A stretch of 62,795 nt of DNA, filler included. It is 5 parts of 5 records of this genome, joined end to end, with 100 filler letters (N's around TTAATTAATTAA, not from the genome) between each part and the next. Parts side by side here need not be neighbours in the genome. Positions count along the whole stretch, not along the records: positions 31,437 to 50,140 come from SRR20825006_1052; 4 more parts are not named here. The stretch is one strand, 5' to 3'. Both the position numbers and the translations under genes were made by a program. The notes under the pieces were generated by a model. It did not search any database and was not told where the DNA came from. It saw nothing but the letters and a program-made list of their open reading frames with translations. Positions 10,453 through 50,110 of the stretch are shown here, one piece after another (position 1 is the stretch's first letter; every line of letters starts with the position of its first letter).

Positions 10453-10550
10453 GCTGACCGTCGTGGCTCGTTGAGGAAGGGGCGCGGCAGAAAAAGAGTG
10501 GCGCCGGCAAAAACTGAAACCGCCCACGCTGCTTTATTCGGCTCGCCCCT

Positions 10551-14883: not shown

Positions 14884-15003
14884 GGCATTGTTTCTTCCTC
14901 TCTTGAGAAAAATCCCCAAGTTCAGTGATGTTCATCACATATAAGACCTCGTTCAATGAGCGCCCTGTGGACTTCTTCTTTCAGGCTTTAACGGGGTACA
15001 TCC

Positions 15004-31298: not shown

Positions 31299-31301
31299 AT
31301 C

Positions 31302-31336
31302 TGGTACGCCCGAGAGGATTCGAACCTCTGACCTTT
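31302..31336 (-). tRNA. 3' half of a tRNA, probably tRNA-Arg, cut by contig end
   Basis: Minus strand AAAGGTCAGAGGTTCGAATCCTCTCGGGCGTACCA: T-arm GTTCGAATC, acceptor strand and CCA; anticodon not visible. Confidence 0.8.
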
Positions 31337-31436
31337 NNNNNNNNNNNNNNNNNNNNNNNNNNNNNNNNNNNNNNNNNNNNTTAATTAATTAANNNNNNNN
31401 NNNNNNNNNNNNNNNNNNNNNNNNNNNNNNNNNNNN
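31337..31436. other. Artificial contig linker
   Basis: N run containing TTAATTAATTAA. Confidence 0.99.
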
Positions 31437-31486
31437 ACAAGTCCTATTTTTAAATACATCTTATTCCGCTTGGTAGTGATTATCAT
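31437..31486 (-). CDS. 5' end of a third cassette gene, truncated
   Basis: (MIITTKRNK)MYLKIGL.. begins just after the GTTATTA core and runs into the linker. Confidence 0.4.
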
Positions 31487-31488
31487 TG

Positions 31489-31619
31489 TAATAACGACCG
31501 AGGCTAGAAAGTCGTACGGACTCTTTACCAAGGTTTTATTTTAAAGATAGGAATAGTTTTCAAACCAAAATTGATTGTCCGAAGCATAAACCCGTATGCT
31601 TTTTAAGCCTTTGTTATGT
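31489..31619 (-). repeat. attC-like recombination site (131 bp)
   Basis: Minus strand ACATAAC-AA-AGGCTTAAAAAGCATACGG...CCGTACGACTTTCTAGCCT-CGGTC-GTTATTA; the upstream gene's TAA stop lies in the TAAC core. Confidence 0.75.
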
Positions 31620-31922
31620 GCTTCCTTCACGTTTATTTCCGCAAGCTGCACAAAATGATGCCTGCGGAGTGCGATATGGTTTACCACATTTTTCACAGGG
31701 AGGTCCATGATGATCTATACAGTGGTGCATTACTGCATTGGGGACAGTCTCTTTGAAACCAGTCACGGATTCGTAGTATTCGAGTAGTGGTTTGAACCGA
31801 TCTTTAAGTGGTATTCCAGTTTTCTTAAACGCATCTCCATATAATTTACTTGCAATGGCAAACTCGTCCTTGTCAAGCATAGGAATTTCCATTTTACATC
31901 TCCAGCACCAGAGTTTCTGCAT
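31614..31922 (-). CDS. Small Cys/His-rich putative zinc-binding protein (cassette cargo)
   Basis: CWRC, HH, CEKC and CAAC motifs. Confidence 0.75.
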   Translation of the reverse strand: MQKLWCWRCKMEIPMLDKDEFAIASKLYGDAFKKTGIPLKDRFKPLLEYYESVTGFKETVPNAVMHHCIDHHGPPCEKCGKPYRTPQASFCAACGNKREGST

Positions 31923-31924
31923 AA

Positions 31925-32257
31925 CTAAAATTTAGTAGATGGAATATAATATGATGCCGAGAATTGCAATTTTGGGTTCGAAGACTTGAATTGATTAAAT
32001 GCAGTAATGTACCATTCTGGATCAGTAGGCTTTTTATTATAATCCTCACAAGTTAACACGTTATAGAACTCACCATTTAACCATGGTTCAATCCCGTATA
32101 CACCGAGATTAAGCTCGGTTATACGGGTCAACACAATTTCAAACTCTTCAGCATTAAAATACTTAATTGAATCGGCATCAAATCCATCGTTAAGATTATT
32201 CAAATTGTAAAAGACTTTTTCATCCAAATATTTCAATTTTGCTTGCTGATTATCCAT
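31925..32257 (-). CDS. Hypothetical acidic protein (cassette cargo)
   Basis: 110-aa ORF with GVYGIEPW motif, 2 nt from the next start. Confidence 0.7.
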   Translation of the reverse strand: MDNQQAKLKYLDEKVFYNLNNLNDGFDADSIKYFNAEEFEIVLTRITELNLGVYGIEPWLNGEFYNVLTCEDYNKKPTDPEWYITAFNQFKSSNPKLQFSASYYIPSTKF

Positions 32258-32298
32258 AATGGTTTACAATCTATGGTTTTTGAGTAATGGTCAGTTGC

Positions 32299-32370
32299 AC
32301 ATAACGGACAAAGCTAAGAAACGTTGCCGTCCCCGCAGGGGCGGCTATGTTTTCTTAGCTAGTGTTATGA
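32299..32370 (-). repeat. attC-like recombination site (72 bp)
   Basis: Minus strand TCATAAC-ACT-AGCTAAGAAAACATAGCCGCCCC-TGCG-GGGACGGCAACGTTTCTTAGCT-TTGTCC-GTTATGT. Confidence 0.8.
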
Positions 32371-32406
32371 GCATGATTTATAATATTTCGTAATTTGATT
32401 GCTCTA

Positions 32407-34632
32407 CTAACTGTAATACTTCATGAAGTGAACTCGTTCTCTTTTAAAATCATATTCTTCAAATTCTTCATTGTGCAGTGAGAATACAAGAATTTTTTCT
32501 TCCATTTCATTGAGATATATAAATCCATTTTTGCCTACCGAAATATCTACAATATCTCGGCAATCATTGTCCTTTCGTTCTCTAGTTAGTGTTTTAGACG
32601 CAAAAGTTCTGTGGTTTTTAATTTTAATATGTTCAAATACACTATCTCTTCTATTTAAATCAAGATACGCGCAGTAAAGTTCTAAATCAGCTCCCTTTTC
32701 GATGTAATCTATTGCGATCGAAATTGATTCCTTTAGATGATGAATATTCAAAATCTCATATTCGACTTTTCCTAAACGAATAAGAAGGAAAGCTCCAGTA
32801 CCATTGGTAGATCCACGTAGTAAGATCAACTCTTCACCGTTGTGATCAATTCTTTGAAGTTTGATGTTCTGCAAATTAAAAAGAAATGAGGCTTCTTTAC
32901 TTAGTTCGAATGATTTCAGCCATTCATTAATTTCTTTGAAGTCCCAAATACTCGATCTAATTGATTCAATTGTTATTATTGGATTAATTTGAAAATCGTC
33001 AGAAATTTGATATACTAATTCTCCAGTACTATTGAGGTAATTATTTCCGATCCCAACAAACCCCAAATTAAAGGGAGTCAACTTGAGATAGAAATCTAAA
33101 TAATAATTCTTTAAATGACGGAATTCATTAAACACCATTATTTTTTCTTCAATCTGAACTATCGTTTGAATTGACCCATCGTCTTCAATTTTGCAAAAAA
33201 TGTCATCAATTCTCTCATTTTCTGGTGCATGATAAAAGAAATTGGCTGTTAAATCTTGCTCTGGATTCCAATAAAAACAATCTCGAGCGTTGATACCAAC
33301 TATAAGGGTTGAATTCAAAGTTCTAACAACCTCGACGCTAGATACTCTTAATTGTCTATCTAATGGTAACTTTGCATATATCTGATCTATTTTTTTTGGG
33401 TTTCGAAGGCTTAGGTCAGTGGAAGTTATGATTAGAACAAAATTTCTAGGTAAATTTCTAACAATAGAGGCCGTTGGTTTTTCAACGTAAAGTTCGTTTA
33501 CATCGTATTCTAAAAATCTCTTCACTGAACTAATTATTCGCGTAAGGTTTTCGAATAGATATCGATCTGAGCGATATGTTTCGACTAAATCCAATTTCAA
33601 ATCCATTGATAACTTAATCTCAGCAATAAAACTAGCAAGATGACCTGAGAAATAACCATGATGAATTGGACACCAATTCAATAGCTTTAAATCCTTTAAT
33701 ATATCCTTTGGAATTTTCTCTAAGCAGCTAAATGCGAATAATCCACTTTGAATAAAACGTATATGATCAAGGTTTTCCGGTGAAAATGAATCTTTAACCC
33801 AGTCGTCAACGATTTCATTTAACTCTGACAGATTAAAAATTGACTGGATAATTCTTTGAGTAGAAGAAAATTTATCTCTCTTATCAACGATAGTCGCATT
33901 GTATTGTTCAAGTGCTTGATTGAACGCGAACACCATTTCAGATTCAACCCAATAGTGTTCTTTATCATAGGCCTTTTGGATGATTGAATTCAGTTTATTA
34001 CTGTCTTGTCCTCCAATTAGTAGTTGTTTTATTTCAGCTAATTCATTTCTGAATTGGTCTATTATCAATGTATTAGGGTCTTCATGAGACTCACCACAAA
34101 ACAATTTGCACCAGACATCCCCGAAATAATTACGTACTATTGTGGGATGCTTTTTCAGAATTCTGTTAATCTGGACGCTATCCCATTTAACAAAGTCAAT
34201 GCCGATCTTTTTTAGATCAGACCTTAGCGAATTGAATTTATCCTGCAGACTTGTTGAATTTAACTTGAGACTTGTGCACAAATAAAATTTATCACTTTTT
34301 GAACACCAGTTACCTTTCTTGAAGTCATGTACAATTTCGTCAAGTTGACCAGGTGAAATGGCTTGATATCTCTTGCACTGAAAACACTCATATTTATCGG
34401 TATTTTTGAATGCGAAAATATCGATACCCTCTTGCTTACTGCCGGAAACACCATAAATTTCGCATTTCTCAATTGAATGCTCTTCCTCAACTAACCTTAA
34501 ACAAAGCCTTTCGAAATCAACCCAAGATAATTTATTGATTGGCAATTCGCTAATTCTCGTGTCCGCCGGCGGAGAAACTATGGATTCTGGACCGGTCAAT
34601 AAATATGAAATATCTATTTGTTTTTTATTCAT
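32407..34632 (-). CDS. Mrr-like PD-(D/E)xK restriction-endonuclease domain fused to a large uncharacterised region (cassette cargo)
   Basis: N-terminal WVDFERLC...GSKQEGIDIFA...FQCKRY; no Walker A seen. Confidence 0.75.
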   Translation of the reverse strand: MNKKQIDISYLLTGPESIVSPPADTRISELPINKLSWVDFERLCLRLVEEEHSIEKCEIYGVSGSKQEGIDIFAFKNTDKYECFQCKRYQAISPGQLDEIVHDFKKGNWCSKSDKFYLCTSLKLNSTSLQDKFNSLRSDLKKIGIDFVKWDSVQINRILKKHPTIVRNYFGDVWCKLFCGESHEDPNTLIIDQFRNELAEIKQLLIGGQDSNKLNSIIQKAYDKEHYWVESEMVFAFNQALEQYNATIVDKRDKFSSTQRIIQSIFNLSELNEIVDDWVKDSFSPENLDHIRFIQSGLFAFSCLEKIPKDILKDLKLLNWCPIHHGYFSGHLASFIAEIKLSMDLKLDLVETYRSDRYLFENLTRIISSVKRFLEYDVNELYVEKPTASIVRNLPRNFVLIITSTDLSLRNPKKIDQIYAKLPLDRQLRVSSVEVVRTLNSTLIVGINARDCFYWNPEQDLTANFFYHAPENERIDDIFCKIEDDGSIQTIVQIEEKIMVFNEFRHLKNYYLDFYLKLTPFNLGFVGIGNNYLNSTGELVYQISDDFQINPIITIESIRSSIWDFKEINEWLKSFELSKEASFLFNLQNIKLQRIDHNGEELILLRGSTNGTGAFLLIRLGKVEYEILNIHHLKESISIAIDYIEKGADLELYCAYLDLNRRDSVFEHIKIKNHRTFASKTLTRERKDNDCRDIVDISVGKNGFIYLNEMEEKILVFSLHNEEFEEYDFKRERVHFMKYYS

Positions 34633-34703
34633 GTATTCAACTTCCTATGCATTCTGCGTGCTCTCTGCATGTTTTCTAATGTTCCACCGAGCCAATTGCA
34701 TAT

Positions 34704-34750
34704 TGCTCATAACTACTGGCTAAACTCCATGGCGTTTAGCCAACTTATAA
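34704..34750 (-). repeat. Array-head site (attI-like or degenerate attC)
   Basis: Minus strand TTATAAGT-TGGCTAAAC-GCCATGGA-GTTTAGCCA-GTA-GTTATGAGCA; left core is AAG rather than AAC. Confidence 0.55.
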
Positions 34751-34940
34751 ATCCTCTCCGCCAAATCTCAGCCAAAACCTGACTGGCAAAGAACTAATCC
34801 GACAAACAAATGCTTACAAGTACTTGATTTCAGTTAGATTATCTCTCCTAAATTACTTTTTTTCGGCAGAGTAGGGCATTTTGATCTACTTTTTTTGAAT
34901 CTACCTTTCACACACCAAATCCCCTTCATTCCCTGAAAAC

Positions 34941-34970
34941 AAAAAAGCCACCTCGCAATGAGATGGCTTT
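34941..34970 (-). terminator. Intrinsic terminator of the M13 peptidase operon
   Basis: Minus strand AAAGCCATCTCATTGCGAGGTGGCTTTTTT. Confidence 0.85.
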
Positions 34971-34996
34971 CAATTCTATTTCTTGCAGAACGAGTT

Positions 34997-37072
34997 CTAC
35001 CAGATCTTACTGATTTCTTCTTCTGAATTTCTCATCGGATCCGCTTCTTTTACGTCGAACGCTTCGAAAAATTCTGGGCAGTTCATCAAAGGTCCATTCA
35101 CACGGTACATACCAGGTGAGTGCGGATCATTCGCAATGCGGTTTTTCAATTCTTCTTCTGTATAATTGATTTTCCACAATTGTGCGTAGGCTATAAAGAA
35201 ACGTTGCGCTGGAGTATATCCCAATTTTTTCACTCCTGCTTGGAACTCACTCGTGCGAGTGTAAGCATAGTAAGCCATTGTTAATCCACCGAGATCGGCG
35301 ATGTTTTCACCCATCGTTAAGTCTGGATTTACACAGTGACCGTCAATTGGACAAAATCCTGCGAACGTCATTCCTAATTTTCCAGTGCGCTCTTCAAACA
35401 ATTTACGATCGCTTTCTGTCCACCAGTTTCTAAATGATCCATCGGCAGCAAATTTCGATCCCATATCGTCAAAACCATGCGTAAATTCGTGTCCGATCAC
35501 CATTCCAATACGACCGTAATTCACAGCGTCTTCATACGAATCACTAAAGAAAGGAGCTTGCATAATTCCAGCTGGAAAAGCAATTTCATTCAATAATGGA
35601 TGATAATAAGCGTTCACCATGTGAGCTGGCATTCCCCATTCTTCTTTGTCAACAGGCTTGTTCAACTCCTTCATGTTCTTTTTGTGATCATAAGCGGCCA
35701 CATTTTTAAGATTCTGAACATATCTTTCATTCGAGAAATCCAATGAACTAAAATCTTCCCATTTACTAGGGAAACCGAGTTTTCTTCCGATAGAATTAAG
35801 TTTCACCGAAGCTTCTGTTTTTGTTTCACCAGACATCCAGTCCAAAGCATCAATTCGCTCTTGGAAAACAGCCAATAGATTGTCAACCATTTCGTTTACA
35901 CGTTGCTGTGCTTGACTAGAGTAGTGCTTTTCAACAAATGCTTTCCCGAGTAATTCACCAAATGATTTTCCAGTAATATTATCGATTGCACGCTCATTGA
36001 TAGGCTTCATTTCTTTCTTTCCACTCAATACTTTTCCGTAGAATTCGAAATTTTGGTCTACAAAAGACGAACTCAAACTTCCTGCGTAGTGATTCAATAC
36101 TTGCCATTTAAGGTAGTTTTTCCAATCGCTTAATGATACGTCGTTCATCATCACGGCAATTTTCTTCGCGAAATCTGGCTGAGCCACAATTACTGAGTCG
36201 AAAGCCATGCTTCCAATTCCTTTCAAATATCCATCGAAATTAAAACCTCCCAAATAAGATGCTAATTCATTACGGTGCATTTTATTGTACGTTTTCTCTG
36301 GGCTTCTTAATTCCGCAGGACGCATCATGCTTTCCGCAAGTTGTTTTTCAAAGTTGATAACAGAAGTCGCGAATTCATCCACCGTTGTACCTTCTTCCAT
36401 ATCAGTCATACCAATCATGATTGAGATATGTCTTTTGTATTCTCTCAGGATTTCTGCTTTGTCTTCGGAGAAATAATAATCTCTATTTGGCAAGCCAATT
36501 CCACCTTGACCGAAGTAAGAAATGTGATTATCAACATCCTTCAAATCTTGTCCAACTCCAAAACCGAAAAGAGAACCAATTCCATATACATGGTGATCAG
36601 AAACGATCATGAAAAGGTCTTTCTTTGAATTCGCTTTACGGATAATTTCTAATTCCTCAGCGATCGGAGAAAAACCAAATTTCTCACGGACTTCCATGTT
36701 TGTGTACGAAGAATAATACGAACCAAGAATTTGATTCATAGAACCTTTTTGTCCTTGGTTGGCTTTTGCGGCCTCTAAAATAGTCGTGAGTTTCGTTTTG
36801 TTGGATTGATCCAATTCGTTGAAACTTCCCCAACGTGATTCAGAAGCAGGCACTGGATTACTTTTCATCCAAGTTCCGTTTGCGAACTCAAAGAAGTCAT
36901 CTTGTGGACGAACAGCATTGTTCATGTAACCAAGATCTATCGACGCACCTTCGCGCGGTGGCTTAGGAGTTGCAGTTTCCACAGCTTCAGCAACTGTTTC
37001 TTGCGATCCTTTCTTAATTGAGTCGCATGCTACGAGACTAAGCGCCGCGAATGTTAATAAAGTATATTTCAT
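34997..37072 (-). CDS. M13-family zinc metallopeptidase (PepO/neprilysin-like) lipoprotein
   Basis: Lipobox LVAC; PQDDFF, VNAYY, HEFTHGFDD, GENIADLGG, DPHSP. Confidence 0.95.
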   Translation of the reverse strand: MKYTLLTFAALSLVACDSIKKGSQETVAEAVETATPKPPREGASIDLGYMNNAVRPQDDFFEFANGTWMKSNPVPASESRWGSFNELDQSNKTKLTTILEAAKANQGQKGSMNQILGSYYSSYTNMEVREKFGFSPIAEELEIIRKANSKKDLFMIVSDHHVYGIGSLFGFGVGQDLKDVDNHISYFGQGGIGLPNRDYYFSEDKAEILREYKRHISIMIGMTDMEEGTTVDEFATSVINFEKQLAESMMRPAELRSPEKTYNKMHRNELASYLGGFNFDGYLKGIGSMAFDSVIVAQPDFAKKIAVMMNDVSLSDWKNYLKWQVLNHYAGSLSSSFVDQNFEFYGKVLSGKKEMKPINERAIDNITGKSFGELLGKAFVEKHYSSQAQQRVNEMVDNLLAVFQERIDALDWMSGETKTEASVKLNSIGRKLGFPSKWEDFSSLDFSNERYVQNLKNVAAYDHKKNMKELNKPVDKEEWGMPAHMVNAYYHPLLNEIAFPAGIMQAPFFSDSYEDAVNYGRIGMVIGHEFTHGFDDMGSKFAADGSFRNWWTESDRKLFEERTGKLGMTFAGFCPIDGHCVNPDLTMGENIADLGGLTMAYYAYTRTSEFQAGVKKLGYTPAQRFFIAYAQLWKINYTEEELKNRIANDPHSPGMYRVNGPLMNCPEFFEAFDVKEADPMRNSEEEISKIW

Positions 37073-37074
37073 GT

Positions 37075-37536
37075 TTAGTTGTTTTTTGGTTCAAAGAGCA
37101 TTTCTACGTGTGGAATTCCATCTTCCAAGTACTCTTTTCCTGTCGTTAAAAATTTATGCTTGCCGTAATAGTTTTCCAAATGTTTCTGTGCCGAAATGCG
37201 AATTGGCTCGTTCCCGAATTCGAGGAGACAAAAATCCATTGCTTTTTCCATTAACTCATGTCCAACGCCGTGTCCACGAATCCCTTCGCTGGTAACAACT
37301 CTTCCAACTGCCACATTTGAATAGGCGATTCCTGGAGGAAGAATCCTTGCTGTTGCTACGATATCACCTTTACCATCTCTACAGATGATATGGTACGCTT
37401 TTTTGTCCTTTCCATCCAAATCTAAATACGGACAGTTTTGTTCTACGACAAATGCGTTTAATCTCAACGCTATAATGTCATGAAATTCATTCAGCGTTAA
37501 ATCGCGATAGTGTTTTATTTGCCAATCTAAAATCAT
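37075..37536 (-). CDS. elaA: ElaA-like GNAT acetyltransferase
   Basis: LRxxxFVVEQNCPYLDLDG, IRISAQ, YLEDGIPH; likely start 37536. Confidence 0.85.
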   Translation of the reverse strand: MILDWQIKHYRDLTLNEFHDIIALRLNAFVVEQNCPYLDLDGKDKKAYHIICRDGKGDIVATARILPPGIAYSNVAVGRVVTSEGIRGHGVGHELMEKAMDFCLLEFGNEPIRISAQKHLENYYGKHKFLTTGKEYLEDGIPHVEMLFEPKNN

Positions 37537-37540
37537 ATTC

Positions 37541-39184
37541 TCATGTTTGAATAACACCAACGTTATATGGTTTCTCTGCCTTTTTATGACTCGCCATCTC
37601 AATTCCCATAGAGATCACTTTTCGCGTTTCTAGTGGATTAATGATTGCATCGACCCATAATCTACTTGCCGCATAATAAGGCGAAATTTGTTCGTCGTAC
37701 CTGTTTTTAATTGTATCAAAGAGTTCTTTCTCGCGTTCAGGAGTAATTTCTTCTCCTTTCGATTTCAACGATGCTACTTCAATTTGCAACAATACTTTTG
37801 CCGCAGCTGCACCGCTCATTACAGCAAGTTCAGCAGTTGGCCATGCAACGATTAAACGTGGATCGTAAGCCTTTCCGCACATCGCGTAGTTTCCAGCTCC
37901 GTATGAATTTCCTGTGATGATCGTGAACTTAGGAACGACAGAATTCGCCATGGCACTCACCATTTTCGCACCGTCTTTGATGATTCCACCGTGTTCACTT
38001 TTCGATCCCACCATAAATCCAGTAACATCCTGAATAAATACGAGGGGAATGTTCTTTTGATTACAATTCATTATAAATCGCGCAGATTTGTCCGCTGAAT
38101 CAGAATAGATCACTCCGCCAAATTGCATTTCGCCTTTTGCGTTTTTCACAATCTCTCGCTGATTCGCTACAATTCCAACGCTCCAACCATCTACACGTGC
38201 ATATCCGCACACGATGGATTGACCATAATTTTCTTTGTACTCCGTAAATTTAGAATCATCTACTAGGCAGTTGATAATATCGCGGACATTGTACGGTTTC
38301 GAACGATCTGCAGGAAGGATTCCATAAATATCGCGCTCATTTTCTTTCGGAGGAGCCGATTCTTTTCTATCAAATCCTGCATTTTCAGGTTGACCGATTT
38401 TATCCATTAAATCGCGAATCGTAGACAAACATTCCTCATCTGTCTCTACGTTGTAATCGCATACGCCAGAAATTTCAGTGTGCGTTGTCGCTCCACCCAA
38501 TGTCTCATTATCAATCGATTCACCAATGGCTGCCTTAACGAGGTAAGAACCTGCAAGGAAAATAGTTCCAGTTTTATTTACAATTAAGGATTCGTCAGAC
38601 ATGATAGGTAAGTACGCGCCACCTGCGACACAACTTCCCATAACGGCAGCTATTTGAACAATTCCCATAGAACTCATTACAGCATTGTTTCGGAAAATTC
38701 TCCCGAAGTGCTCTTTGTCAGGGAAAATTTCATCTTGCATCGGAAGGAATACTCCCGCAGAATCTACCAAATAGATAATCGGTAAACGATTCTCCATCGC
38801 AATCTCTTGAGCTCGAAGGTTCTTTTTTCCTGTGATTGGAAACCATGCACCAGCTTTTACTGTAGCATCATTCGCAACAACAATACATTGCTTCCCGCTT
38901 ACATATCCAATCACAACAACAACGCCTCCAGATGGACATCCGCCGTGCTCTTTATACATTCCGTAACCAGCTATCGCGCCAATTTCAATTCTTTCAGCGT
39001 CTGGATCCAATAATAAGTCAATGCGCTCTCTTGCAGTTAACTTACCTTGACTATGAAGTTTTTCGATGCGTTTTTTTCCACCGCCCTCATAGATCTTTCC
39101 CAATTCGCGCTCAAGTGCAGAAATCTTGAGGCGCATTTCATCGTCATTCTTATTAAATTCTAGTTCCTTCGGAGAAATAGCCAT
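37541..39184 (-). CDS. Acyl-CoA carboxylase carboxyltransferase (beta) subunit, methylcrotonyl/propionyl-CoA type
   Basis: GKLTARERI, NDATVKAG, GSCVAGGAY, DVTGFMVG, SYGAGNYAMCG. Confidence 0.93.
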   Translation of the reverse strand: MAISPKELEFNKNDDEMRLKISALERELGKIYEGGGKKRIEKLHSQGKLTARERIDLLLDPDAERIEIGAIAGYGMYKEHGGCPSGGVVVVIGYVSGKQCIVVANDATVKAGAWFPITGKKNLRAQEIAMENRLPIIYLVDSAGVFLPMQDEIFPDKEHFGRIFRNNAVMSSMGIVQIAAVMGSCVAGGAYLPIMSDESLIVNKTGTIFLAGSYLVKAAIGESIDNETLGGATTHTEISGVCDYNVETDEECLSTIRDLMDKIGQPENAGFDRKESAPPKENERDIYGILPADRSKPYNVRDIINCLVDDSKFTEYKENYGQSIVCGYARVDGWSVGIVANQREIVKNAKGEMQFGGVIYSDSADKSARFIMNCNQKNIPLVFIQDVTGFMVGSKSEHGGIIKDGAKMVSAMANSVVPKFTIITGNSYGAGNYAMCGKAYDPRLIVAWPTAELAVMSGAAAAKVLLQIEVASLKSKGEEITPEREKELFDTIKNRYDEQISPYYAASRLWVDAIINPLETRKVISMGIEMASHKKAEKPYNVGVIQT

Positions 39185-39206
39185 AGTTCAATTTTCTTAA
39201 GTGGCT

Positions 39207-39214
39207 CAAATATA
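39207..39214 (-). promoter_or_regulatory. Bacteroidota -7 promoter element
   Basis: TATATTTG on the minus strand, upstream of the carboxylase gene. Confidence 0.6.
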
Positions 39215-39340
39215 CACATTCTGTTTTGTGACTTTAACACGATTCGCGATTTCTTGATGAACGGCGTGAAGCACAAATACACGGAGATAATCCACAGTGA
39301 AATGTTTATATTCTCTCAGAAGAAGTTGATCAGATAGCGT

Positions 39341-39348
39341 TAAATTTG
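39341..39348 (+). promoter_or_regulatory. Bacteroidota -7 promoter element
   Basis: TAAATTTG ending 4 nt before the pcm ATG. Confidence 0.65.
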
Positions 39349-39352
39349 CACC

Positions 39353-39994
39353 ATGCAAGATTCGTACAGATATAAAGGAATGCGTCGAAAGTTAATCTCT
39401 GAGCTTAGAGAAAAGGGAATTTCCGATGAGAGAGTGTTAAATGCATTTGATTCCATTCCTCGTCACTTTTTCTTAGACAACGCGTTTGCAGAGCAGGCGT
39501 ATACGAATATGGCATTTCAAATCGGGTCAGGACAAACGATCAGTCACCCGTATACCGTAGCATTTCAAACAATGCTTCTGGATATCCAAAAAGGGGAGAA
39601 GATCCTTGAAATTGGTTCTGGATCTGGGTTTCAAACGTGCATTTTGTGCGAAATGGGAGCGAAAGTGTTCAGTATCGAACGTCATCGTCCGCTTCATTTG
39701 AAAGCAAAAGAAATGGTGCGACATTTTAATTTCAACGCTAGACTTAGCTTTGGAGATGGTTATAAAGGCTTGCCGACATTTGCTCCGTTTGATAAAATCA
39801 TTATTACATGCGGTGCGCCAGAAATTCCAATGGATTTGGTAGATCAACTTAAATTAGGTGGATTAATGATTATTCCCGTGGGAGAAGGCGCCGAGCAAAT
39901 GATGAAACTAATTGTTAAAACCGAAAATGGATTTCTCGAAGACGATTTGGGAGTGTTCAGTTTTGTACCAATGCTTCAAGATAAGGTGAAGTAA
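39353..39994 (+). CDS. pcm: Protein-L-isoaspartate O-methyltransferase
   Basis: PRHFF, GQTISHPY, LEIGSGSG, GDGYKG...APFDKII, FVPM. Confidence 0.95.
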   Translation: MQDSYRYKGMRRKLISELREKGISDERVLNAFDSIPRHFFLDNAFAEQAYTNMAFQIGSGQTISHPYTVAFQTMLLDIQKGEKILEIGSGSGFQTCILCEMGAKVFSIERHRPLHLKAKEMVRHFNFNARLSFGDGYKGLPTFAPFDKIIITCGAPEIPMDLVDQLKLGGLMIIPVGEGAEQMMKLIVKTENGFLEDDLGVFSFVPMLQDKVK

Positions 39995-40033
39995 TTACTT
40001 TTTTTACTGATATTAGCATCAAAAAAACTAATC

Positions 40034-40756
40034 ATGATTAAACTGAAAGATAACGAGCAACGTTCTAAGAACGCCATATTAACAATGTGGTTTATTCTTG
40101 GAGGTGTAATATTAGGATTGATAATTGAACTCTATTCAATAAAAGTACTTTTTGACTTAAAGAATTTAGAATATGGAAATCTTACTTATTTATCAGAAGG
40201 TTTACAGTCTGGACCTGTGCTTATACTACTTGGGTTTGGAGGATTGATTCTACTCGCTGTAAACGTCATTGCCATAGTGTATTTCATAATGTGGTTCAGA
40301 CGGGCTTATTGGAATTTACACCAATTAACAAATGGACTTCAGTATAGCGAGGGATGGGCTGCTGGAGCTTGGTTTATTCCTGTTTTTAGCTGGTTTGGAC
40401 CATTCCAGATTGCTAAAGAACTCTTCACAAAAACGGAAGGTTTGTTAGTAGCAGAAGGATTGATCGAAGCAAATCCCAAGAGAATGAAAATAGCAGGTGT
40501 TTGGTGGACTTTGTGGATAATCTCTTCAATTTTGGGAGCCATCGCTAATCAAGGCGATAAAATCAACGATATTGATGGTCAAATTATATTCGGTTTTCTA
40601 AGTATAGTTGCATCGTCGATCTCTATCATTGCTGCAATTTTTGCAGTTAAAATGATTAAGGAATACCACAAAATGGAAGTGCTTTTGTCAAAATTACAAA
40701 GTGGAGTGGCAACGATTCGTTTAGACGATAATGACCTTCTTGATTCGGGAATGTAA
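40034..40756 (+). CDS. DUF4328-like membrane protein
   Basis: Four TM helices; WFRRAYWNL...GWAAGAWFIP...WW motif. Confidence 0.75.
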   Translation: MIKLKDNEQRSKNAILTMWFILGGVILGLIIELYSIKVLFDLKNLEYGNLTYLSEGLQSGPVLILLGFGGLILLAVNVIAIVYFIMWFRRAYWNLHQLTNGLQYSEGWAAGAWFIPVFSWFGPFQIAKELFTKTEGLLVAEGLIEANPKRMKIAGVWWTLWIISSILGAIANQGDKINDIDGQIIFGFLSIVASSISIIAAIFAVKMIKEYHKMEVLLSKLQSGVATIRLDDNDLLDSGM

Positions 40757-40816
40757 AACTAATTAAAGCAGTCAGTGATTAATCATCTTAAAATTCGTAG
40801 CAAAAAACATTCAACT

Positions 40817-41878
40817 ATGAAAGCCATTTACGTTCTACTATTCTGTGTGTTACCTTTAGCTGTAGCAGCACAAACGGAGAAAGAAAAAGAAGCAAGAGAC
40901 CTTTGTATAACTGCCATCGAAAAAATGGATAAAGGAGAAATTGAGGAATCGATTGTTCTTTTGAAAAAAGCGCAAAAGCTAGATCCAAAGAATTTGGACT
41001 ATCAATACGAGATGGGATTTGCATACACGCTAAAAAAAGACTACAAAAAAGCGATTTCCATTTTGCAAAAGATCACGGATGATAAAAATACATTCCCTCG
41101 CGCTTACCAATTATTAGGAAATACTTACGACTATAACGGACAATCCGATTTGGCAATCAAAACCTATGAAGAAGGACTCAAGAAATTCCCGAAATCAGGG
41201 GAGTTATATTTGGAGCGCGGAAATATGGAACTGGCGAATGACAAGTTTAATGCAGCGCTCGATTATTACATAAAAGGGACACTTGAAGATCCTGAGTTTC
41301 CATCAAACTACTATTGGTGTGCAAGAATTTACATGAATTCAGAGGATCGATATTTAGGTTTAATTTATGCTGAACTATTTATGAATCTCGAAAGAGGATC
41401 GAAAAGAACAGAGCAAATTAGCCAAGAGATTTTCGATACCTATACAAAGGCAATTACGATCACTAGCGACACCTCAATGAGAATTGATATCTCAAGTGAT
41501 AAAATAGTACTCAATGATCTTGAGAATTTCAAATTGCCTTATGGCCTTTCTGTTTATGCACCCATTTTTTCAATTAGTTGTGCTCTAATGAAGGACGTTA
41601 CAATTGGATCGTTGAATAAAGTTCGCACGACGTTTGTAGATCAGTATTACGAAGCGGGACACAATGAAACATTTCCAATTGTACTTTTCGAATACCAGAA
41701 AAAAGTAAAGAAAGAAGGGCATTTTGAAGCATACAATCATTGGTTGATGATGAAAGGAAATGAAGATGAATTTAAAACTTGGCTAGAGGCAAACAGTGAT
41801 AAATGGTCTGGGTTTATTTATTGGTACAATGACAATCCCATAGAAATAACCGAAAAAACGCGATTTATTCAACCATAA
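40817..41878 (+). CDS. Secreted tetratricopeptide-repeat protein
   Basis: Signal peptide ending AAQ; TPR-like helical repeats. Confidence 0.85.
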   Translation: MKAIYVLLFCVLPLAVAAQTEKEKEARDLCITAIEKMDKGEIEESIVLLKKAQKLDPKNLDYQYEMGFAYTLKKDYKKAISILQKITDDKNTFPRAYQLLGNTYDYNGQSDLAIKTYEEGLKKFPKSGELYLERGNMELANDKFNAALDYYIKGTLEDPEFPSNYYWCARIYMNSEDRYLGLIYAELFMNLERGSKRTEQISQEIFDTYTKAITITSDTSMRIDISSDKIVLNDLENFKLPYGLSVYAPIFSISCALMKDVTIGSLNKVRTTFVDQYYEAGHNETFPIVLFEYQKKVKKEGHFEAYNHWLMMKGNEDEFKTWLEANSDKWSGFIYWYNDNPIEITEKTRFIQP

Positions 41879-41920
41879 GAGTCGATTTGACTCATAGTTT
41901 TCCAAGAGAAAGATAAAAGC

Positions 41921-41958
41921 AAAAAAAGAGCGGTGAATTCAAATTCACCGCTCTTTTT
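41921..41958. terminator. Bidirectional intrinsic terminator
   Basis: AAAAAAAGAGCGGTGAAT...ATTCACCGCTCTTTTTT. Confidence 0.9.
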
Positions 41959-41977
41959 ACAATAATGTTTACGAGGA

Positions 41978-42928
41978 TTAGTGTCCTTTAGCTGCTAAGT
42001 AACGCTCTGCATCCAATGCTGCCATACATCCCGTTCCTGCCGCAGTAACAGCTTGACGATATGTTTTATCCGCTGCATCACCTGCTACGAAAACTCCAGG
42101 CACATTCGTTTTCGAGGTTCCAGCTTGCTCGTATTTAATGTAACCTGTTTCATCTAGGTTAATATAATCCTTAAATATGTCCGTATTTGGTTTGTGACCA
42201 ATCGCTACGAAGAAACCTGTACAAGGAATTTCTTTCAATTCTCCCGTTACTGAATTTTTCACACGAACACCAGTTACACCTTGTCCATCACCTAAAACTT
42301 CATCCGTATTCGTGTTGAATAAGATTTCAATATTTGGCGTATTCTTAACACGTTCTGCCATGATTTTTGAAGCTCTAAACTCATCACGACGAACCAACAT
42401 GGTTACTTTTGTGCATAATTTTGAAAGGTAGTGTGCCTCTTCACACGCTGAATCTCCAGCGCCAACAATTACTGTTTCTTGACCACGGTAAAAGAACCCA
42501 TCACAAACCGCACACGCTGAAACCCCACCACCAATTTTCAAATAGTGTTGTTCACTTTCTAGACCTAAATACTTAGCTGAAGCTCCAGTTGAGATAATGA
42601 TTGTATCTGCATGAATTTCAGTACCATCTTCTACCCAAGCCTTATGAACATCACCAGAGAAATCAACCTTGTTTATGAATCCAAAACGAACATCTGTTTC
42701 AAATCTTTTTGCTTGCGCTTCAAGTTGAATCATCATTTCTGGACCAGTTACACCATCCGGATAACCAGGGAAATTTTCTACTTCATTTGTTGTTGTAAGC
42801 TGTCCTCCAGGCTGCATTCCTTGATATAAGACAGGCTTCATATCAGCTCTTGCTGCATATATTGCAGCCGTAAATCCAGCAGGGCCAGAACCAATAATTA
42901 AGCACTTTACTTTTTCTATTTCGCTCAT
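41978..42928 (-). CDS. trxB: Thioredoxin reductase
   Basis: GSGPAG, GGQL, CAVCDG, GAGDSA, YRQAVTAAGTG. Confidence 0.97.
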   Translation of the reverse strand: MSEIEKVKCLIIGSGPAGFTAAIYAARADMKPVLYQGMQPGGQLTTTNEVENFPGYPDGVTGPEMMIQLEAQAKRFETDVRFGFINKVDFSGDVHKAWVEDGTEIHADTIIISTGASAKYLGLESEQHYLKIGGGVSACAVCDGFFYRGQETVIVGAGDSACEEAHYLSKLCTKVTMLVRRDEFRASKIMAERVKNTPNIEILFNTNTDEVLGDGQGVTGVRVKNSVTGELKEIPCTGFFVAIGHKPNTDIFKDYINLDETGYIKYEQAGTSKTNVPGVFVAGDAADKTYRQAVTAAGTGCMAALDAERYLAAKGH

Positions 42929-42965
42929 TTTATTTTAACTAATGTTTATTCTTTAGACGTAGGAA

Positions 42966-43096
42966 CAAAAGTAACATTTCGCGAAATATGTTGGGTCGCT
43001 TTTCTCCTTAGAAGAGGCAAGCTTAGGAATTCAAGTATTTAATTCTCCGAATAAAGCACTTTAATTTGTGTTTTCATTAAAAAGACACTAGCTTTG
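42966..43096. promoter_or_regulatory. Divergent Bacteroidota promoters
   Basis: TACTTTTG on minus (42966-42973) for trxB; TAGCTTTG on plus (43089-43096) for the helicase. Confidence 0.6.
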
Positions 43097-43121
43097 TAGC
43101 CGCATTTTTGCAGGAAAAAAT

Positions 43122-44633
43122 ATGATTGATACGGAACTTTACGAAGCCAAAGTGCTTTACCCTTTTCAGGAGAAAACAGTAAAATTACTTCTAAAAGAAC
43201 TTCATGATAATGGGAAAGATTTCAATCTTTTGTTTCAATTACCTACGGGTGGAGGTAAGACCGTGATTTTCTCTGAAATTGCTCGGAATTACATTGAGCA
43301 AACGAATGAAAAGGTACTTATTTTAACACATAGGATTGAACTTTCTGTTCAGACATCAAAGCAACTTTCGGCAATTGGTGTTGGAAATAAGATCATTAAC
43401 AGCGAGGTAAAGACGATTCCTGATCAAACGGAATTTAACTGCTTCATTGCAATGGTTGAAACACTAAACAACCGATTAAGCGACGATGAGAACTTTATCA
43501 AAGGTGTAGGCCTGGTAATTGTTGATGAGGCGCACTATAATAGCTTTAGAAAGATTTTCCAGTATTATGAGAATGCAAATATACTTGGTGTAACAGCGAC
43601 ACCTTTGAGCAGTAACAAAGCACTTCCCCTAAACGATAACTATAATAAGTTACTAGTTGGTGAAAGCATTTCTTCTCTTATCGAATCGGGATACTTGGCG
43701 GATGCGGATTCATATACATACGATGTAAACCTTCACGGTTTGAAAATTGGTTCGAATGGCGACTTTACAGTAAGTAGCTCTGACGTGGTTTACGGGAACT
43801 ATTTCATGCAAGAAAAGTTACTTTTTGCTTATGAAGAAGTTGCAGTAGGGAATAAGACGTTGATTTTTAACTCAGGAATTGATACATCTCTTCGTGTTGA
43901 GGAAACGTTTAAAAAACGCGGTTTCCCAATTCGACACTTGGATTCAACATTTAGCGATAAGGATAGAAAAGATGTATTGAGCTGGTTTAAGAAAACACCT
44001 GATGCGATTCTTTCGTCAGTTGGGATTTTGACAACAGGATTTGATGAGCCAACAGTTGAGACAATTATACTAAATAGAGCCACGCGTTCTTTAACATTGT
44101 ATCACCAGATGATCGGGCGTGGATCGCGAAAGCTGCCTAAAAAAGACCGATTTAAGGTCATCGACTTAGGGAATAATGTTCGACGATTCGGCTTGTGGCA
44201 AGATTATTTGAATTGGCAAGATGCCTTCCGTTTTCCAGATAGGTTCTTAGAAGCAAGATTAAGCGAAACAGAGGATCTAGAATTTGAAACAGAATTTGAA
44301 TTCCCTAGAGGATCAGAAGAAATTTTAAACGTTAAAGAACTGGAAGAATTCAGTATCAAAGATGTTTACTACGATTGCGTTGACCGCGGATTAAAAGGGA
44401 AAGAGGCAGTAGATTTATCTCTTGAGAATCACTTTAAAGTAATTTGTGATGCGGCGGAAGATTATTTTCATGGGCTTGAACTTATGGAAATGTTGAAAGA
44501 CCACATCGAGCATCGCTTGAAGCACTACACAAAATGTATCACGAAAAGTACTCCGAATTACTTGAAGTATATCAGCGAAACATACGTGCGACAGTTAAGA
44601 CAGAAACTTAGAGCAAATCTCGAAGACGAATAA
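43122..44633 (+). CDS. SF2 DEAD/DEAH-box helicase (ResIII/RadD-like)
   Basis: PTGGGKT, DEAH, TATP, TTGFDEP, QMIGRG. Confidence 0.92.
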   Translation: MIDTELYEAKVLYPFQEKTVKLLLKELHDNGKDFNLLFQLPTGGGKTVIFSEIARNYIEQTNEKVLILTHRIELSVQTSKQLSAIGVGNKIINSEVKTIPDQTEFNCFIAMVETLNNRLSDDENFIKGVGLVIVDEAHYNSFRKIFQYYENANILGVTATPLSSNKALPLNDNYNKLLVGESISSLIESGYLADADSYTYDVNLHGLKIGSNGDFTVSSSDVVYGNYFMQEKLLFAYEEVAVGNKTLIFNSGIDTSLRVEETFKKRGFPIRHLDSTFSDKDRKDVLSWFKKTPDAILSSVGILTTGFDEPTVETIILNRATRSLTLYHQMIGRGSRKLPKKDRFKVIDLGNNVRRFGLWQDYLNWQDAFRFPDRFLEARLSETEDLEFETEFEFPRGSEEILNVKELEEFSIKDVYYDCVDRGLKGKEAVDLSLENHFKVICDAAEDYFHGLELMEMLKDHIEHRLKHYTKCITKSTPNYLKYISETYVRQLRQKLRANLEDE

Positions 44634-44699
44634 ATAAAGCGCTTCTGTGGATTTTGAACCAAATGTGCATCTTGCATGTACAGGATCAAAATCAACGCC

Positions 44700-45605
44700 A
44701 TGGGAATCTATATTGACAAGCCTTGTTCTGAAGATTGGAACAAGATGACACCTACAGAATTGGGAGCTTTTTGTAAAAAATGTTCTCTTGAAGTCTACGA
44801 TTTTAGCGGAAAATCACCGATGGAAATCAAACAAGTTTTATTGAATAATCAATCAGGGAGCCTTTGTGGAAGAATTTCCCCGAGTACTTTGGAAACCATG
44901 AACGTTGATTTTCGTGCTTGGGAGAGAAACAATAAACGTTCGTTTCAAAGTATTTTAATCTTCTCTCTAATTGTCGCTTTCGGATTTACACTATTTAGCT
45001 GTAATGAAGAAGAAAAACGGAAATTCGGCGAAATTCAAACTGCTGGACAATCCTTGATTCATGAAAAAAATGAGGTCCCAAAACTCCAGAATGACACGTT
45101 AGTTGTCAGTACTGAAAATGTACAAGCAGTTCCAACAGTAATTCCGAAAGTAGGTAAAGCTGAGATCGAAGTGATTCAAATAGTTCCTGATTTTCCAATT
45201 GAAAACATTCAAGGTGCTATGAGGTATGAGCCAATGGAGTTTGAGGATGTTAACAGAGACATCATGAGGTTGGGTGGAATGGGTTTCACGCCATCATTTA
45301 TTGAATATGTTCAGGAGGATATTGATAGTACGGAATCGGAAGTTAAAGTAGAGTTTTCGGCCAAAGTCTTCCCTAATCCAGCGAGAGAGGCATCGCAATT
45401 GGAACTAGAATTACCTCAAGATATCAATGCGCAGATCAAATTGTTTAATCTTGCTGGAGAACTAGTTAAAAACCTGTATTCGGGTGAACTCGGAGAAGGA
45501 AGGCAAACAATAGAAATGAATTTGAACGGTTTAATTGAAGGGATTTATCTAGTGACAATTCAATCACCTGAATATTCGACCTCCATTAAACTCCGAAAAT
45601 ATTAG
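44700..45605 (+). CDS. T9SS type A C-terminal-domain protein with Cys-rich N-terminal domain
   Basis: PCSEDWNKM...FCKKC...VYDF...CGR N-terminus; C-terminal VFPNP...LFNLAG...GIYLV. Confidence 0.8.
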   Translation: MGIYIDKPCSEDWNKMTPTELGAFCKKCSLEVYDFSGKSPMEIKQVLLNNQSGSLCGRISPSTLETMNVDFRAWERNNKRSFQSILIFSLIVAFGFTLFSCNEEEKRKFGEIQTAGQSLIHEKNEVPKLQNDTLVVSTENVQAVPTVIPKVGKAEIEVIQIVPDFPIENIQGAMRYEPMEFEDVNRDIMRLGGMGFTPSFIEYVQEDIDSTESEVKVEFSAKVFPNPAREASQLELELPQDINAQIKLFNLAGELVKNLYSGELGEGRQTIEMNLNGLIEGIYLVTIQSPEYSTSIKLRKY

Positions 45606-46225
45606 TAGCTCAGAACTAATTCGACGGTATCGAAAGGTACAGTTGTAATTGACTTACTTCCTTGTTGTGTAGTGTTTAACAACCAGTAAATGTATGAATA
45701 CGTCGTGTTTCCATCGTTGATACAGTAAATTGACGTATCGATCAATCCGTTTACATACTGATACGTAGTTGGACAGCAATCGTCGCATTCTTGCTTACCT
45801 TCTTGTTTTATGTATTTCAAAACATCCGATTGACTTCCACTTGTATGTACAAAACGTAAATTCACCCACGATTTAGCAGTTACAAAGAAGTTTCTATAGT
45901 TCGTTTCCTTAATTGATAAATCGGAAAGAGAAAATTCATCTTCCTTAGAAAAGTAATCATTTTTCGAAACTTGAATAATGTAAGATTCTGTTTTATCGCG
46001 GTTAAATTCAAATGAATAACTGCCATCACTTCCAGTTTGTGTCGATGCAATTTGCTTATATGAAGAACTCCCAATAGAAAGTTGAAACAGCTTTACATCA
46101 GCGCCCTCAAGCGGCTGTCCAAATGTAAGGTCTAAAATATTTCCATTAATAACAAAACTGGGAGTTCCCTTATTACAAGAGAATAACAACAGCAGAAGAA
46201 AAAGAGGAGCGATAAATCTTGACAT
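45602..46225 (-). CDS. Lipoprotein with carboxypeptidase-regulatory-like beta domain
   Basis: Lipobox LFSC; GNILD...PLEGADV...TGSDGSYSF. Confidence 0.7.
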   Translation of the reverse strand: MSRFIAPLFLLLLLFSCNKGTPSFVINGNILDLTFGQPLEGADVKLFQLSIGSSSYKQIASTQTGSDGSYSFEFNRDKTESYIIQVSKNDYFSKEDEFSLSDLSIKETNYRNFFVTAKSWVNLRFVHTSGSQSDVLKYIKQEGKQECDDCCPTTYQYVNGLIDTSIYCINDGNTTYSYIYWLLNTTQQGSKSITTVPFDTVELVLSY

Positions 46226-46349
46226 GGTTAAAATTTGAAGTTAAGGTAAGTATGTTCGTCGATTTTTCAAAAGATTCTCGTCTAAAGAATTACATTCAAA
46301 AAGTTTGAGCATCTTTATCGTTGAACCGTTAAATTAAAATTAAAACGCC

Positions 46350-47822: not shown

Positions 47823-47943
47823 TGCGATTTATCAGTCTTTTAAGACATTAAGCATTTGCAGTTTTGAACATTATTAAGGATCAATTGTTAATAGTTTTAC
47901 CTATTTTTTTTTTGATCTAAGTGTTCTCCAAACGGGTTTTTTA

Positions 47944-47951
47944 TATATTTG
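47944..47951 (+). promoter_or_regulatory. Bacteroidota -7 promoter element
   Basis: TATATTTG upstream of ATG 47975. Confidence 0.55.
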
Positions 47952-47974
47952 ACCTCAACTATTAAACTATTATT

Positions 47975-48319
47975 ATGTCAGAAATGCAAAAGAAAAACGG
48001 TATGGCAGTAGCTGCCCTCGTTTTAGGAATTATTTCAATCGCGTTGTTTTTAACTGGATGGATAGCCGCTTTATGTGGTTTATTGGCGATTATTTTTGGT
48101 ATTGTTGCCCTCAACAAAGTTAAGGCGGATCCAGATTTGGCTTCAACTAAAGGCAAGGCTAAAGCCGGTCTAGTTATGGGGATTATCGGTCTAATCCTTG
48201 GAGTTGTTTGGACAATTATTGCTATCATGGCGGTAAATGCTGCGATGGAGGCTGGATTTGATCGTTTAAACAATATCGATCAGCAAGAGCTTAGCGATAT
48301 GTTCAATGAGAATAATTAA
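47975..48319 (+). CDS. DUF4190-family membrane protein
   Basis: NGMAVAALVLGI...G.ALN...GKAKAGLVMG. Confidence 0.8.
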   Translation: MSEMQKKNGMAVAALVLGIISIALFLTGWIAALCGLLAIIFGIVALNKVKADPDLASTKGKAKAGLVMGIIGLILGVVWTIIAIMAVNAAMEAGFDRLNNIDQQELSDMFNENN

Positions 48320-48337
48320 GATCAATTAATTAATATT

Positions 48338-48371
48338 AAAAGGGTTTCTTCGAAAGAAGAGACCCTTTTTT
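48338..48371 (+). terminator. Intrinsic terminator
   Basis: AAAAGGGTTTCTTC...GAAGAGACCCTTTTTT. Confidence 0.75.
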
Positions 48372-48434
48372 CATTTGAATTGCCTCTAAAAAGGAAATAT
48401 TTCTTATCTATGTGTTAACTATAAACCAATATTC

Positions 48435-48950: not shown

Positions 48951-48955
48951 ATTGA

Positions 48956-49321: not shown

Positions 49322-49343
49322 TAATCAATAAACTAATATCACT

Positions 49344-49978: not shown

Positions 49979-50005
49979 AAAATAAAATTTTACCTTAATA
50001 AAGTG

Positions 50006-50032
50006 AACGCTCAAGATTTCTTGGGCGTTTTT
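50006..50032 (+). terminator. Intrinsic terminator
   Basis: AACGCTCAAG...CTTGGGCGTTTTTT. Confidence 0.7.
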
Positions 50033-50110
50033 TGTTAGAAACATTTCTTTTCGACTACAATTGATTCTCTTGCTTTTGCTAACTTTGAATTTAACCAGAA
50101 ATCAAAGAAT

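Follow-up and report, generated by a model that had tools for sequence, protein, structure and literature searches.

The stretch of DNA analysed here (the window; 62,795 nt) contains, at the left end of one of its contigs (31437-50140; 18,704 nt, GC about 0.32-0.42), two imperfect palindromes framed by AAC and GTT, here called sites A and B. What kind of element are they? The initial annotation had proposed a structurally separate class of single-strand recombination site, possibly served by a divergent integrase. We conclude, with a probability of roughly 0.85, that A and B are integron attC sites bounding two complete gene cassettes and the start of a third, and that the array, which lies without an integrase where a Crocinitomicaceae contig ends, resembles a CALIN (cluster of attC sites lacking an integron integrase; Cury et al., 2016, PMC4889954). 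The array is called CALIN-like because the contig carries no recombinase and the lineage is one without detectable integron integrase (IntI). The two sites are:

31489..31619, minus strand: probable attC site A, 131 nt, read from the sequence; top covariance-model match, exact ends.
32299..32370, minus strand: probable attC site B, 72 nt, read from the sequence; second covariance-model match, also found in a strict structural scan.

On the minus strand, site A reads ACATAAC-AA-AGGCT...AGCCT-CGGTC-GTTATTA (31619..31489), with the R'' core ACATAAC at 31619..31613 and the R' core GTTATTA at 31495..31489. Site B reads TCATAAC-ACT-AGCTAAG...CTTAGCT-TTGTCC-GTTATGT (32370..32299), with the cores TCATAAC (32370..32364) and GTTATGT (32305..32299). 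The spacer on the R'' side is 2 nt in A (AA) and 3 nt in B (ACT), against 5 nt (CGGTC) and 6 nt (TTGTCC), respectively, on the R' side. The 3-nt spacer asymmetry described in the initial annotation was thus confirmed, as were the two pairs of cores, the lengths of 131 and 72 and the slight similarity of the two sites, which outside the cores have little sequence in common.

The minus strand, which is the gene strand, is the top strand of both sites, and the plus strand is the bottom, recombining strand, as had been stated earlier. When both strands were folded with DNA parameters, the plus strand was better by about 2 kcal/mol in each case: site B folds at -21.0 kcal/mol on the plus and -19.1 on the minus strand (z -6.0/-6.5; 0 of 200 shuffles as stable), and site A at -14.0 and -11.9 kcal/mol (z -2.0/-1.0; 7/200 and 33/200 shuffles as stable), which gives a plus-strand advantage of 1.9 kcal/mol for B and 2.1 for A. 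By folding energy alone, site A is weak. In a strict scan of the window for AAC...GTT plus a stem, site B was the sole match. Single bulged bases occur in the stems of both sites, in line with the earlier description. The G-T wobbles noted there do occur in the plus-strand minimum free energy folds and in none of the minus-strand folds, but the "several" of that description amount to three (one in A, two in B). A better fold of the bottom strand is a known attC property, with a mean difference of 2.12 kcal/mol over 263 attC sites in the sections of PMC5027507 on which we draw; in our own reference sets, described below, the bias was -0.85 (35/53 sites) and -1.37 (12/15 sites).

The strongest single argument for the cassette identity comes from the cores. 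As background, the integrase cuts at G|TT, and the last six bases of R' are thus part of the cassette that follows. It is therefore expected that R'' in the attC of a cassette pairs with the R' tail at the start of that same cassette. This is what was found: R'' of A (ACATAAC) is complementary at 7/7 positions to the R' core of B (GTTATGT) and at 5/7 to the R' core of A itself, while R'' of B (TCATAAC) is complementary at 7/7 to a further core, GTTATGA, at what we call junction C, and at 6/7 to B's own R'. The reference arrays give the same picture: of 60 adjacent pairs, 48 agree with the upstream site in the three variable core bases, and 14 agree with the R' of the site itself. This chimeric-core signature is a record of past recombination. 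Since attC sites in arrays are chimeric, it also accounts for the loose fit of the cores to RYYYAAC/GTTRRRY. The initial annotation had listed the loose cores and the bottom-strand bias as non-canonical features; both are real, but both are canonical properties of attC, the former through the chimeric make-up of the sites and the latter as documented in PMC5027507. The layout that follows from cutting the cores at G|TT is:

34707..34750, minus strand: junction C, a hairpin with an 8-10 bp stem followed by the core GTTATGA (34713..34707); inverted repeat I8.
32305..34712, minus strand: inferred cassette 1, 2408 nt, holding the open reading frame (ORF) ORF741 and attC B.
31495..32304, minus strand: inferred cassette 2, 810 nt, holding ORF110, ORF102 and attC A.
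31437..31494, minus strand: start of a third cassette, with an ATG at 31486..31484 and a frame open for 16 codons to the contig end.

All cassette ORFs are co-oriented with the sites, and each site lies 3' of its ORF or ORFs. The hairpin of junction C folds with z -4.1 to -4.6 and precedes ORF741 by 75 nt, and junction C is likely to be the upstream boundary of the first cassette. At the other end, the assembly graph branches at 31489, that is, at the core of A. A 106-nt contig, present in three runs of one study and similar in depth to the main contig, equals 31437-31489 apart from two differences, after which it runs on into another attC-like sequence. The sample therefore holds at least one further site of this kind.

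To place A and B among known sites, IntI genes were identified with NCBIfam TIGR02249, and 20 kb were fetched around 20 of them at the outset. In 10 of these first 20 loci a hallmark motif, GGTCGTTA, is repeated up to 16 times within 10 kb, always on a single strand and to one side of intI. Site A carries the same hallmark on the minus strand, as the motif GGTC-GTTA, and the 3' end of site B, TTTGTCCGTTATGT, recurs unchanged as the 3' end of an attC next to an IntI gene (L125:729-852). The consensus of the reference sites is RYATAAC-A-AGCGTTT[C]AAGCGG[A]C...CCGCTTAAACGCN-GGGTC-GTTATRY, with TAAC/GTTA invariant in 53/53. Two covariance models of the class were built with seeds from Bacteroidota arrays beside IntI, R1 from 24 seeds and R2 from 53 sequences of 12 loci, and both strands of the whole window were searched with filters off. 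With R1, A scored 21.0 bits (E 0.0073) and B 12.7 bits (E 0.91); with R2 the scores were 17.0 bits (E 0.057) and 16.6 bits (E 0.071). With either model A and B ranked first and second, on the minus strand and with exact ends. The next-ranked match in the window reached 10.8 bits, and the best R2 match in an 88-kb Crocinitomicaceae background 9.5 bits. Taken jointly, two top-ranked matches that share a strand, start 810 nt from each other, have exact ends and lie 3' of co-oriented ORFs are not a chance outcome. Together with the chimeric cores, the model ranks uphold the part of the initial annotation that saw attC recombination sites of the single-strand type.

The asymmetry was then compared across attC sites with a parser that places two or three extrahelical bases and measures p, the distance from AAC to the first of them, and q, the corresponding distance from GTT on the other arm. 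Its background was 1 match in 1.4 Mb, and Bacteroidota sites were counted at 12/12 matches. The counts are:

Class 1 plasmid attC (aadA1, aadA2, cmlA5, arr-3, qacL and others): sites in 3 of 3 plasmids, 11 sites; (p,q) all (8,8) or (8,9).
IntI loci of the phylum Bacteroidota: sites in 30 of 40 loci, 88 sites; q minus p is +4 in 44, +3 in 35, +2 in 1 and 0 or +1 in 8.
IntI loci of the phylum of genome G001 (the comparison phylum): sites in 11 of 20 loci, 29 sites; q minus p is 0 or +1 in 26 and +3 in 3.

Read by hand, the same class 1 sites also gave q minus p of 0 or +1. Among the parsed Bacteroidota sites an asymmetry of +3 or +4 was present in 79/88, with 27 loci asymmetric and 3 canonical. 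In the asymmetric class p keeps its canonical value of 8, so that the extrahelical bases fall at positions 16 and 23, and the additional bases lie exclusively on the R' arm. A and B depart in the same direction and by the same amount (7 against 10 nt in A, 10 against 13 nt in B). The 3-nt asymmetry is thus the usual design of attC beside ordinary IntI in the Bacteroidota sample. In the comparison phylum, the +3 sites (one in L255 and two in L270) lie inside otherwise canonical arrays, which would fit an exchange of cassettes between attC classes.

The spacer itself is also different. The textbook unpaired segment of 5-6 nt is here a helix of 5-7 bp, with 1-3 nt left unpaired towards R'' and 5-6 nt towards R'. 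This helix, which separates the R box from the first extrahelical base, covaries between taxa (GCGTTT/AAACGC, GCGGCT/AGCCGC, GCGCTT/AAGCGC). Overall, pairing holds in 89.9% of cells, compared with 78.1% after shuffling and about 30% after sliding, and compensatory changes occur in 14 of 20 pairs. The check for covariation and conserved asymmetry that the initial annotation had suggested therefore came out positive on both counts. A and B lack the unpaired spacer of 5-6 nt, but because the same departure is present in 79/88 Bacteroidota sites, we read it as the mark of a subclass and not as grounds for exclusion. In the literature that we searched, neither a Bacteroidota attC class nor a spacer excess on the R' side is described; supplementary alignments (e.g. 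of PMC4889954), which may record spacer-length variation, lay outside that search.

How do A and B compare with established systems? With canonical class 1 attC (59-base elements such as those of aadA1, cmlA5 and arr-3) they share the inverse AAC/GTT cores, the imperfect palindrome, the position 3' of an ORF, the more stable bottom strand and the chimeric neighbouring cores. Their lengths of 131 and 72 fall inside the attC range of 57-141 bp, and canonical attC are described as having unpaired central spacers of five to six bases on each arm, both according to sections of PMC5027507; the (8,8) or (8,9) returned by our parser for class 1 sites agrees with those published arms. Like canonical attC, the Bacteroidota reference class has its extrahelical bases at 16 and 23, with 6 bp between them. 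Unlike canonical attC, A and B have an R' side longer by 3 nt and a central spacer that is mostly base-paired, and their second extrahelical base is an internal loop or a mismatch. In Vibrio-type sedentary chromosomal arrays (VCR), the geometry is roughly symmetric, with a partly paired spacer. Like such arrays, the Bacteroidota loci L127, L130 and L135 have long sites (about 120-130 nt), with high similarity among the sites of one array. Like a CALIN, A and B lie close together with no IntI nearby: there are two attC within 4 kb, where at least two are called for, and the array runs off the contig end. The contig does not present the combination that marks a complete integron, an intI gene over the TIGR02249 cut-off with an attI beside the array. 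What sets the array apart from CALINs in general is its host class (that of G002), which has no IntI in 201 sampled genomes.

Taxon-specific attC sequence and structure have been captured in covariance models for 11 taxa that do not include Bacteroidota (Ghaly et al., 2021, PMC8352920); the stem "bacteroid" is absent from the text of that paper, and those portions of it that we drew on contain no spacer asymmetry. As a home-made proxy for a canonical model we used R3, whose 15 seeds comprise 9 class 1 sites of plasmids and 6 canonical sites of the loci L123, L124 and L132. It scored canonical sites at 44-61 bits when they were seeds and at 25-49 bits when they were not, and asymmetric-class sites at 15-34 bits. 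In L127 it recovered 9 of 16 hallmark-motif sites at E<=1 and 2 at E<=0.01, and at E<=10 it reported neither A nor B. The authors of IntegronFinder stated that in 2016 only In0 elements had been found in Bacteroidetes, and listed in 2022 complete integrons in Chlorobi, Ignavibacteriae and Salinibacter ruber M1 (passages of PMC9024848). The official attC model therefore detects some arrays in what GTDB places in Bacteroidota, and for the present class a reduced sensitivity short of blindness is plausible. An energy-only attC detector was dropped, as it gave many false matches in high-GC contigs.

The integrases that accompany the reference arrays are classical. Three array-side enzymes scored 439-449 bits over the full TIGR02249 model, and one of them aligned with IntI1 without gaps at 45% identity over 315 residues, which means that the IntI-specific segment is present. 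In a quick tree, the asymmetric class was dispersed over the IntI tree and did not form one divergent clade; the rows of L132 and L235, with branches of about 5, are probably the wrong ORF, and nothing is drawn from them. The proposal of a separate site class with a divergent integrase is not supported by these observations, because the same architecture, including GGTC-GTTA, stands beside classical IntI. In the phylum-wide sample, 113 of 401 genomes carried a TIGR02249 IntI. The arrays of L126, L127, L131 and L132 are divergent from intI, which is the usual arrangement, while those of L123, L124 and L128 follow downstream of intI on its own strand.

A gene-capture system of Bacteroidia distinct from IntI, run by a divergent integrase, would nevertheless suit the complete lack of classical IntI in the sampled family, order and class, the non-canonical extrahelical bases of A and B and their failure to appear with R3, and the family does contain IntI-like tyrosine recombinases without the IntI-specific segment. 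It is hard to reconcile with the presence of this architecture and motif beside classical IntI genes; in addition, the 310-aa recombinase at L247 is paired with a Y2 transposase of the IS91 family, seven regions around such recombinases are without arrays and yield one weak R2 match, and the 18.7 kb of our contig hold no recombinase gene at all. We give this explanation a small chance. Smaller still is the chance that the attC sites are real but belong to another organism and were joined to the Crocinitomicaceae backbone by an assembly chimera. The cassettes make up the last 3.3 kb of the contig and have a lower GC (0.32-0.33, against 0.37-0.42), the window itself mixes unrelated contigs, and a run from a second study leaves the bin of junction C uncovered, although a hole proves nothing. 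Yet that same run holds pieces of both backbone and cassettes at >=99% identity and similarly low depth (28 of 30 bins covered), and the whole 18,704-nt contig was assembled unbranched in three public runs, which belong to one study, may be the source of the contig and so are not independent.

The possibility that A and B are ordinary intrinsic terminators or palindromes resembling repetitive extragenic palindromic (REP) elements, with AAC and GTT at their ends by chance, we regard as the least probable of all, close to negligible. Both hairpins do follow ORFs, the GC-rich core of B was flagged as terminator-like, and the folding energy of A is barely above that of shuffles. The only flag, however, is on the plus strand, opposite to the genes; on the transcribed strand no GC-rich hairpin with a T-run behind it, the mark of an intrinsic terminator, was flagged. 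Such an origin would leave unexplained the 7/7 complementarity of the cores, the motif GGTC-GTTA, the first and second ranks with exact ends in the covariance models, and a graph branch that falls on the core of A. A scan for AAC/GTT over 1.4 Mb, in the M13-peptidase loci of 80 relatives, gave 16 chance-level matches against 3-6 in shuffled sequence, none of them like A or B. A search of 31437-35100 against Rfam at E<=10 returned two chance-level small RNA matches only, and no matching family.

Several observations weigh against the integron attC reading and are the reason for not stating it more firmly. The model scores of A and B are modest (E 0.007-0.9), and the E-values are rough. The covariation alignment had been fitted to the model. 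At E<=0.01 with strict filters, R2 gave a match in 1 of 151 Crocinitomicaceae genomes. No IntI above the TIGR02249 cut-off was present in the genomes sampled from the family (0/401), the order (0/401) or the class (0/201), and on the contig there was no recombinase among the 20 ORFs scanned and no IntI in the 15 kb upstream of the sites. Junction C has a degenerate left core, TTATAAG, with AAG for AAC, and did not appear among the R2 matches to the whole window at E<=10; it could be a decayed attC or a secondary insertion site. Finally, the extrahelical bases of A and B fall below 10/12 in the canonical parser. The canonical pattern is two or three such bases on the bottom strand, with G at 16 and T at 23/24, 6 bp apart. 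By hand, the first bulge of A is at 15 (a shift of -1), and the second is replaced by a 2x3 loop holding an unpaired bottom-strand T at 23; in B there is a bulged bottom-strand T at 18-21 (a shift of +2 or more), and a bottom-strand T.T mismatch six positions after the bulge stands in for the second extrahelical base. Because of this failed pattern, A and B may be decayed or inactive.

By analogy with the integrons that have been studied, the plus (bottom) strand of A and B would fold into a hairpin, an IntI-type tyrosine recombinase would bind the R and L boxes and cut in the AAC of the R' core, and cassettes would be excised or inserted at G|TT. The enzyme that acted, and any activity that the sites may retain, are presumed. 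The occurrence of this attC class beside IntI of other classes of the phylum suggests that the cassettes were imported. They may have arrived with a larger imported segment, by way of a transient integrase, or by insertion at a secondary GTT site, and cassette insertion at secondary GTT sites has been reported (bioRxiv 10.1101/2022.09.11.507474, in part).

The cassettes encode the following proteins:

32407..34632, minus strand: ORF741, with an N-terminal Mrr_cat restriction-endonuclease-like domain (PF04471, E 6.4e-05).
31925..32257, minus strand: ORF110, from the ORF table; 2 nt from ORF102.
31614..31922, minus strand: ORF102, with CxxC pairs; its TAA stop lies inside R'' of A.

The remaining approximately 640 residues of ORF741 have no match in Pfam, NCBIfam or PADLOC, and neither ORF110 nor ORF102 has one in these three collections. 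Judged by its domain, ORF741 is a candidate defence gene, and its cassette would be unusually large. For ORF110, 32 homologues were found. R2, applied to 80 metagenome loci encoding such homologues, gave one weak match (L170, 17.3 bits, E 0.22), and the ORF110-ORF102 pair recurs in 1 of the 80 (L144). A cruder scan located attC-like sites with cores of the GCAAC/GTTGC type and spacers of 2-4 against 5 nt beside an ORF110 homologue in L149, L157 and L184, and two attC-like sites with CAAC/GTTG cores, farther from the homologue, in L178. With attC-like sites near few of its homologues, the family is thus seen in cassettes only sometimes, and the sites of L149, L157 and L184 indicate that it travels in cassettes of another attC type too.

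Outside the cassettes, the contig encodes housekeeping proteins (a carboxyl transferase, a GNAT acetyltransferase, an M13 peptidase, PCMT, a protein resembling thioredoxin reductase, and one that bears a type IX secretion sorting domain). The gene order carboxyl transferase, GNAT, M13 is common to the contig and to metagenome-assembled genomes of Crocinitomicaceae and other Flavobacteriales, whose M13 peptidases are at most 69% identical to this one. The conserved M13-peptidase gene is the directly upstream neighbour of the cassette array, which at 31437-34712 is the part of the contig with the lowest GC. None of the three cassette ORFs had a homologue at the 80 related M13-peptidase loci, and 31437-34996 matched nothing there at the nucleotide level. 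Nothing in genome G001 matched the cassette region either; the kinship of that genome is with the high-GC contigs of the window and not with 31437-50140. The window is a pseudo-molecule of unrelated contigs (GC 0.32 to 0.69), and adjacency across its artificial joiners is biologically meaningless. The joiners are:

9448-9547: non-biological contig joiner, N44-TTAATTAATTAA-N44.
31337-31436: the same; the contig to its left has a GC of about 0.58 and is DNA unrelated to that of the cassette contig.
50141-50240: the same.
56185-56284: the same.

At the end of that high-GC contig, 31300-31336 on the minus strand resembles the 3' portion of a tRNA gene (TGGTACGCCCGAGAGGATTCGAACC...), truncated at the linker; in the whole window, no tRNA was reported by ARAGORN.

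Some further observations concern the family Crocinitomicaceae. The sole strong R2 match among its 151 genomes is a lone attC of the asymmetric class (L143; G020:C183:3151-3279, 46.7 bits) on a 3.6-kb contig, which could be a lone cassette or a mis-binned contig. Locus L247, on the chromosome of genome G005, carries a two-gene module twice, at 8989-11117 and 13483-15611, with the copies 4.5 kb apart. The module consists of a tyrosine recombinase of 310 aa, which matches both ends of the IntI model and not its middle, and an IS91-family Y2 transposase of 398 aa. About 60 nt upstream of the recombinase gene of the second copy there is an AAC...GTT hairpin (13295-13424) with spacers of 1 against 5 nt, and in the first copy the equivalent position (8799-8832) holds a sequence that is related to it, though diverged. 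The one weak R2 match (14.2 bits, E 0.51) in the seven regions mentioned above came from 11-20 kb around each recombinase in family genomes. In four of 401 Crocinitomicaceae genomes (L089-L092) there are tyrosine recombinases of about 475-534 aa with an N-terminal extension of roughly 200 aa, which reach about 140 bits against the integron-integrase model in its N-terminal half; that of L091 totals 229 bits, below the cut-off of 265.

For this window the outcome is an ordinary one, namely orphan integron cassettes. The asymmetric attC architecture is a real, and apparently under-described, variant, within the concept of taxon-specific attC structure that is already established (PMC8352920, in part). 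The asymmetry is systematic and lineage-linked (79/88 sites in Bacteroidota, 3/29 in the comparison phylum). Tentatively, and at somewhat less than even odds, we propose a wider generalization: in Bacteroidota classes other than Bacteroidia, a helix as a rule replaces the central spacer and a conserved 5-6-nt bulge adjoins the R' core, these sites occur together with classical IntI, models of proteobacterial sites score them poorly, and their cassettes reach the Flavobacteriales. If this is true, cassette arrays of Bacteroidota are under-counted by models trained on proteobacterial sites. It would also imply that cassettes in Flavobacteriales, where no integrase was found, depend on trans-acting or transient integrases or on insertion at secondary sites. 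Apart from this generalization, detection tools whose training sites were of class 1 or Vibrio type may be less sensitive to the asymmetric class. An extra 3-4 nt at the cleavage site alters the spacing from R to L box that two integrase monomers bridge, and the asymmetry is thus a natural experiment on synapse geometry and strand choice. Cassettes in a class without any IntI among the genomes sampled bear, in turn, on how cassettes spread beyond the hosts of integrons.

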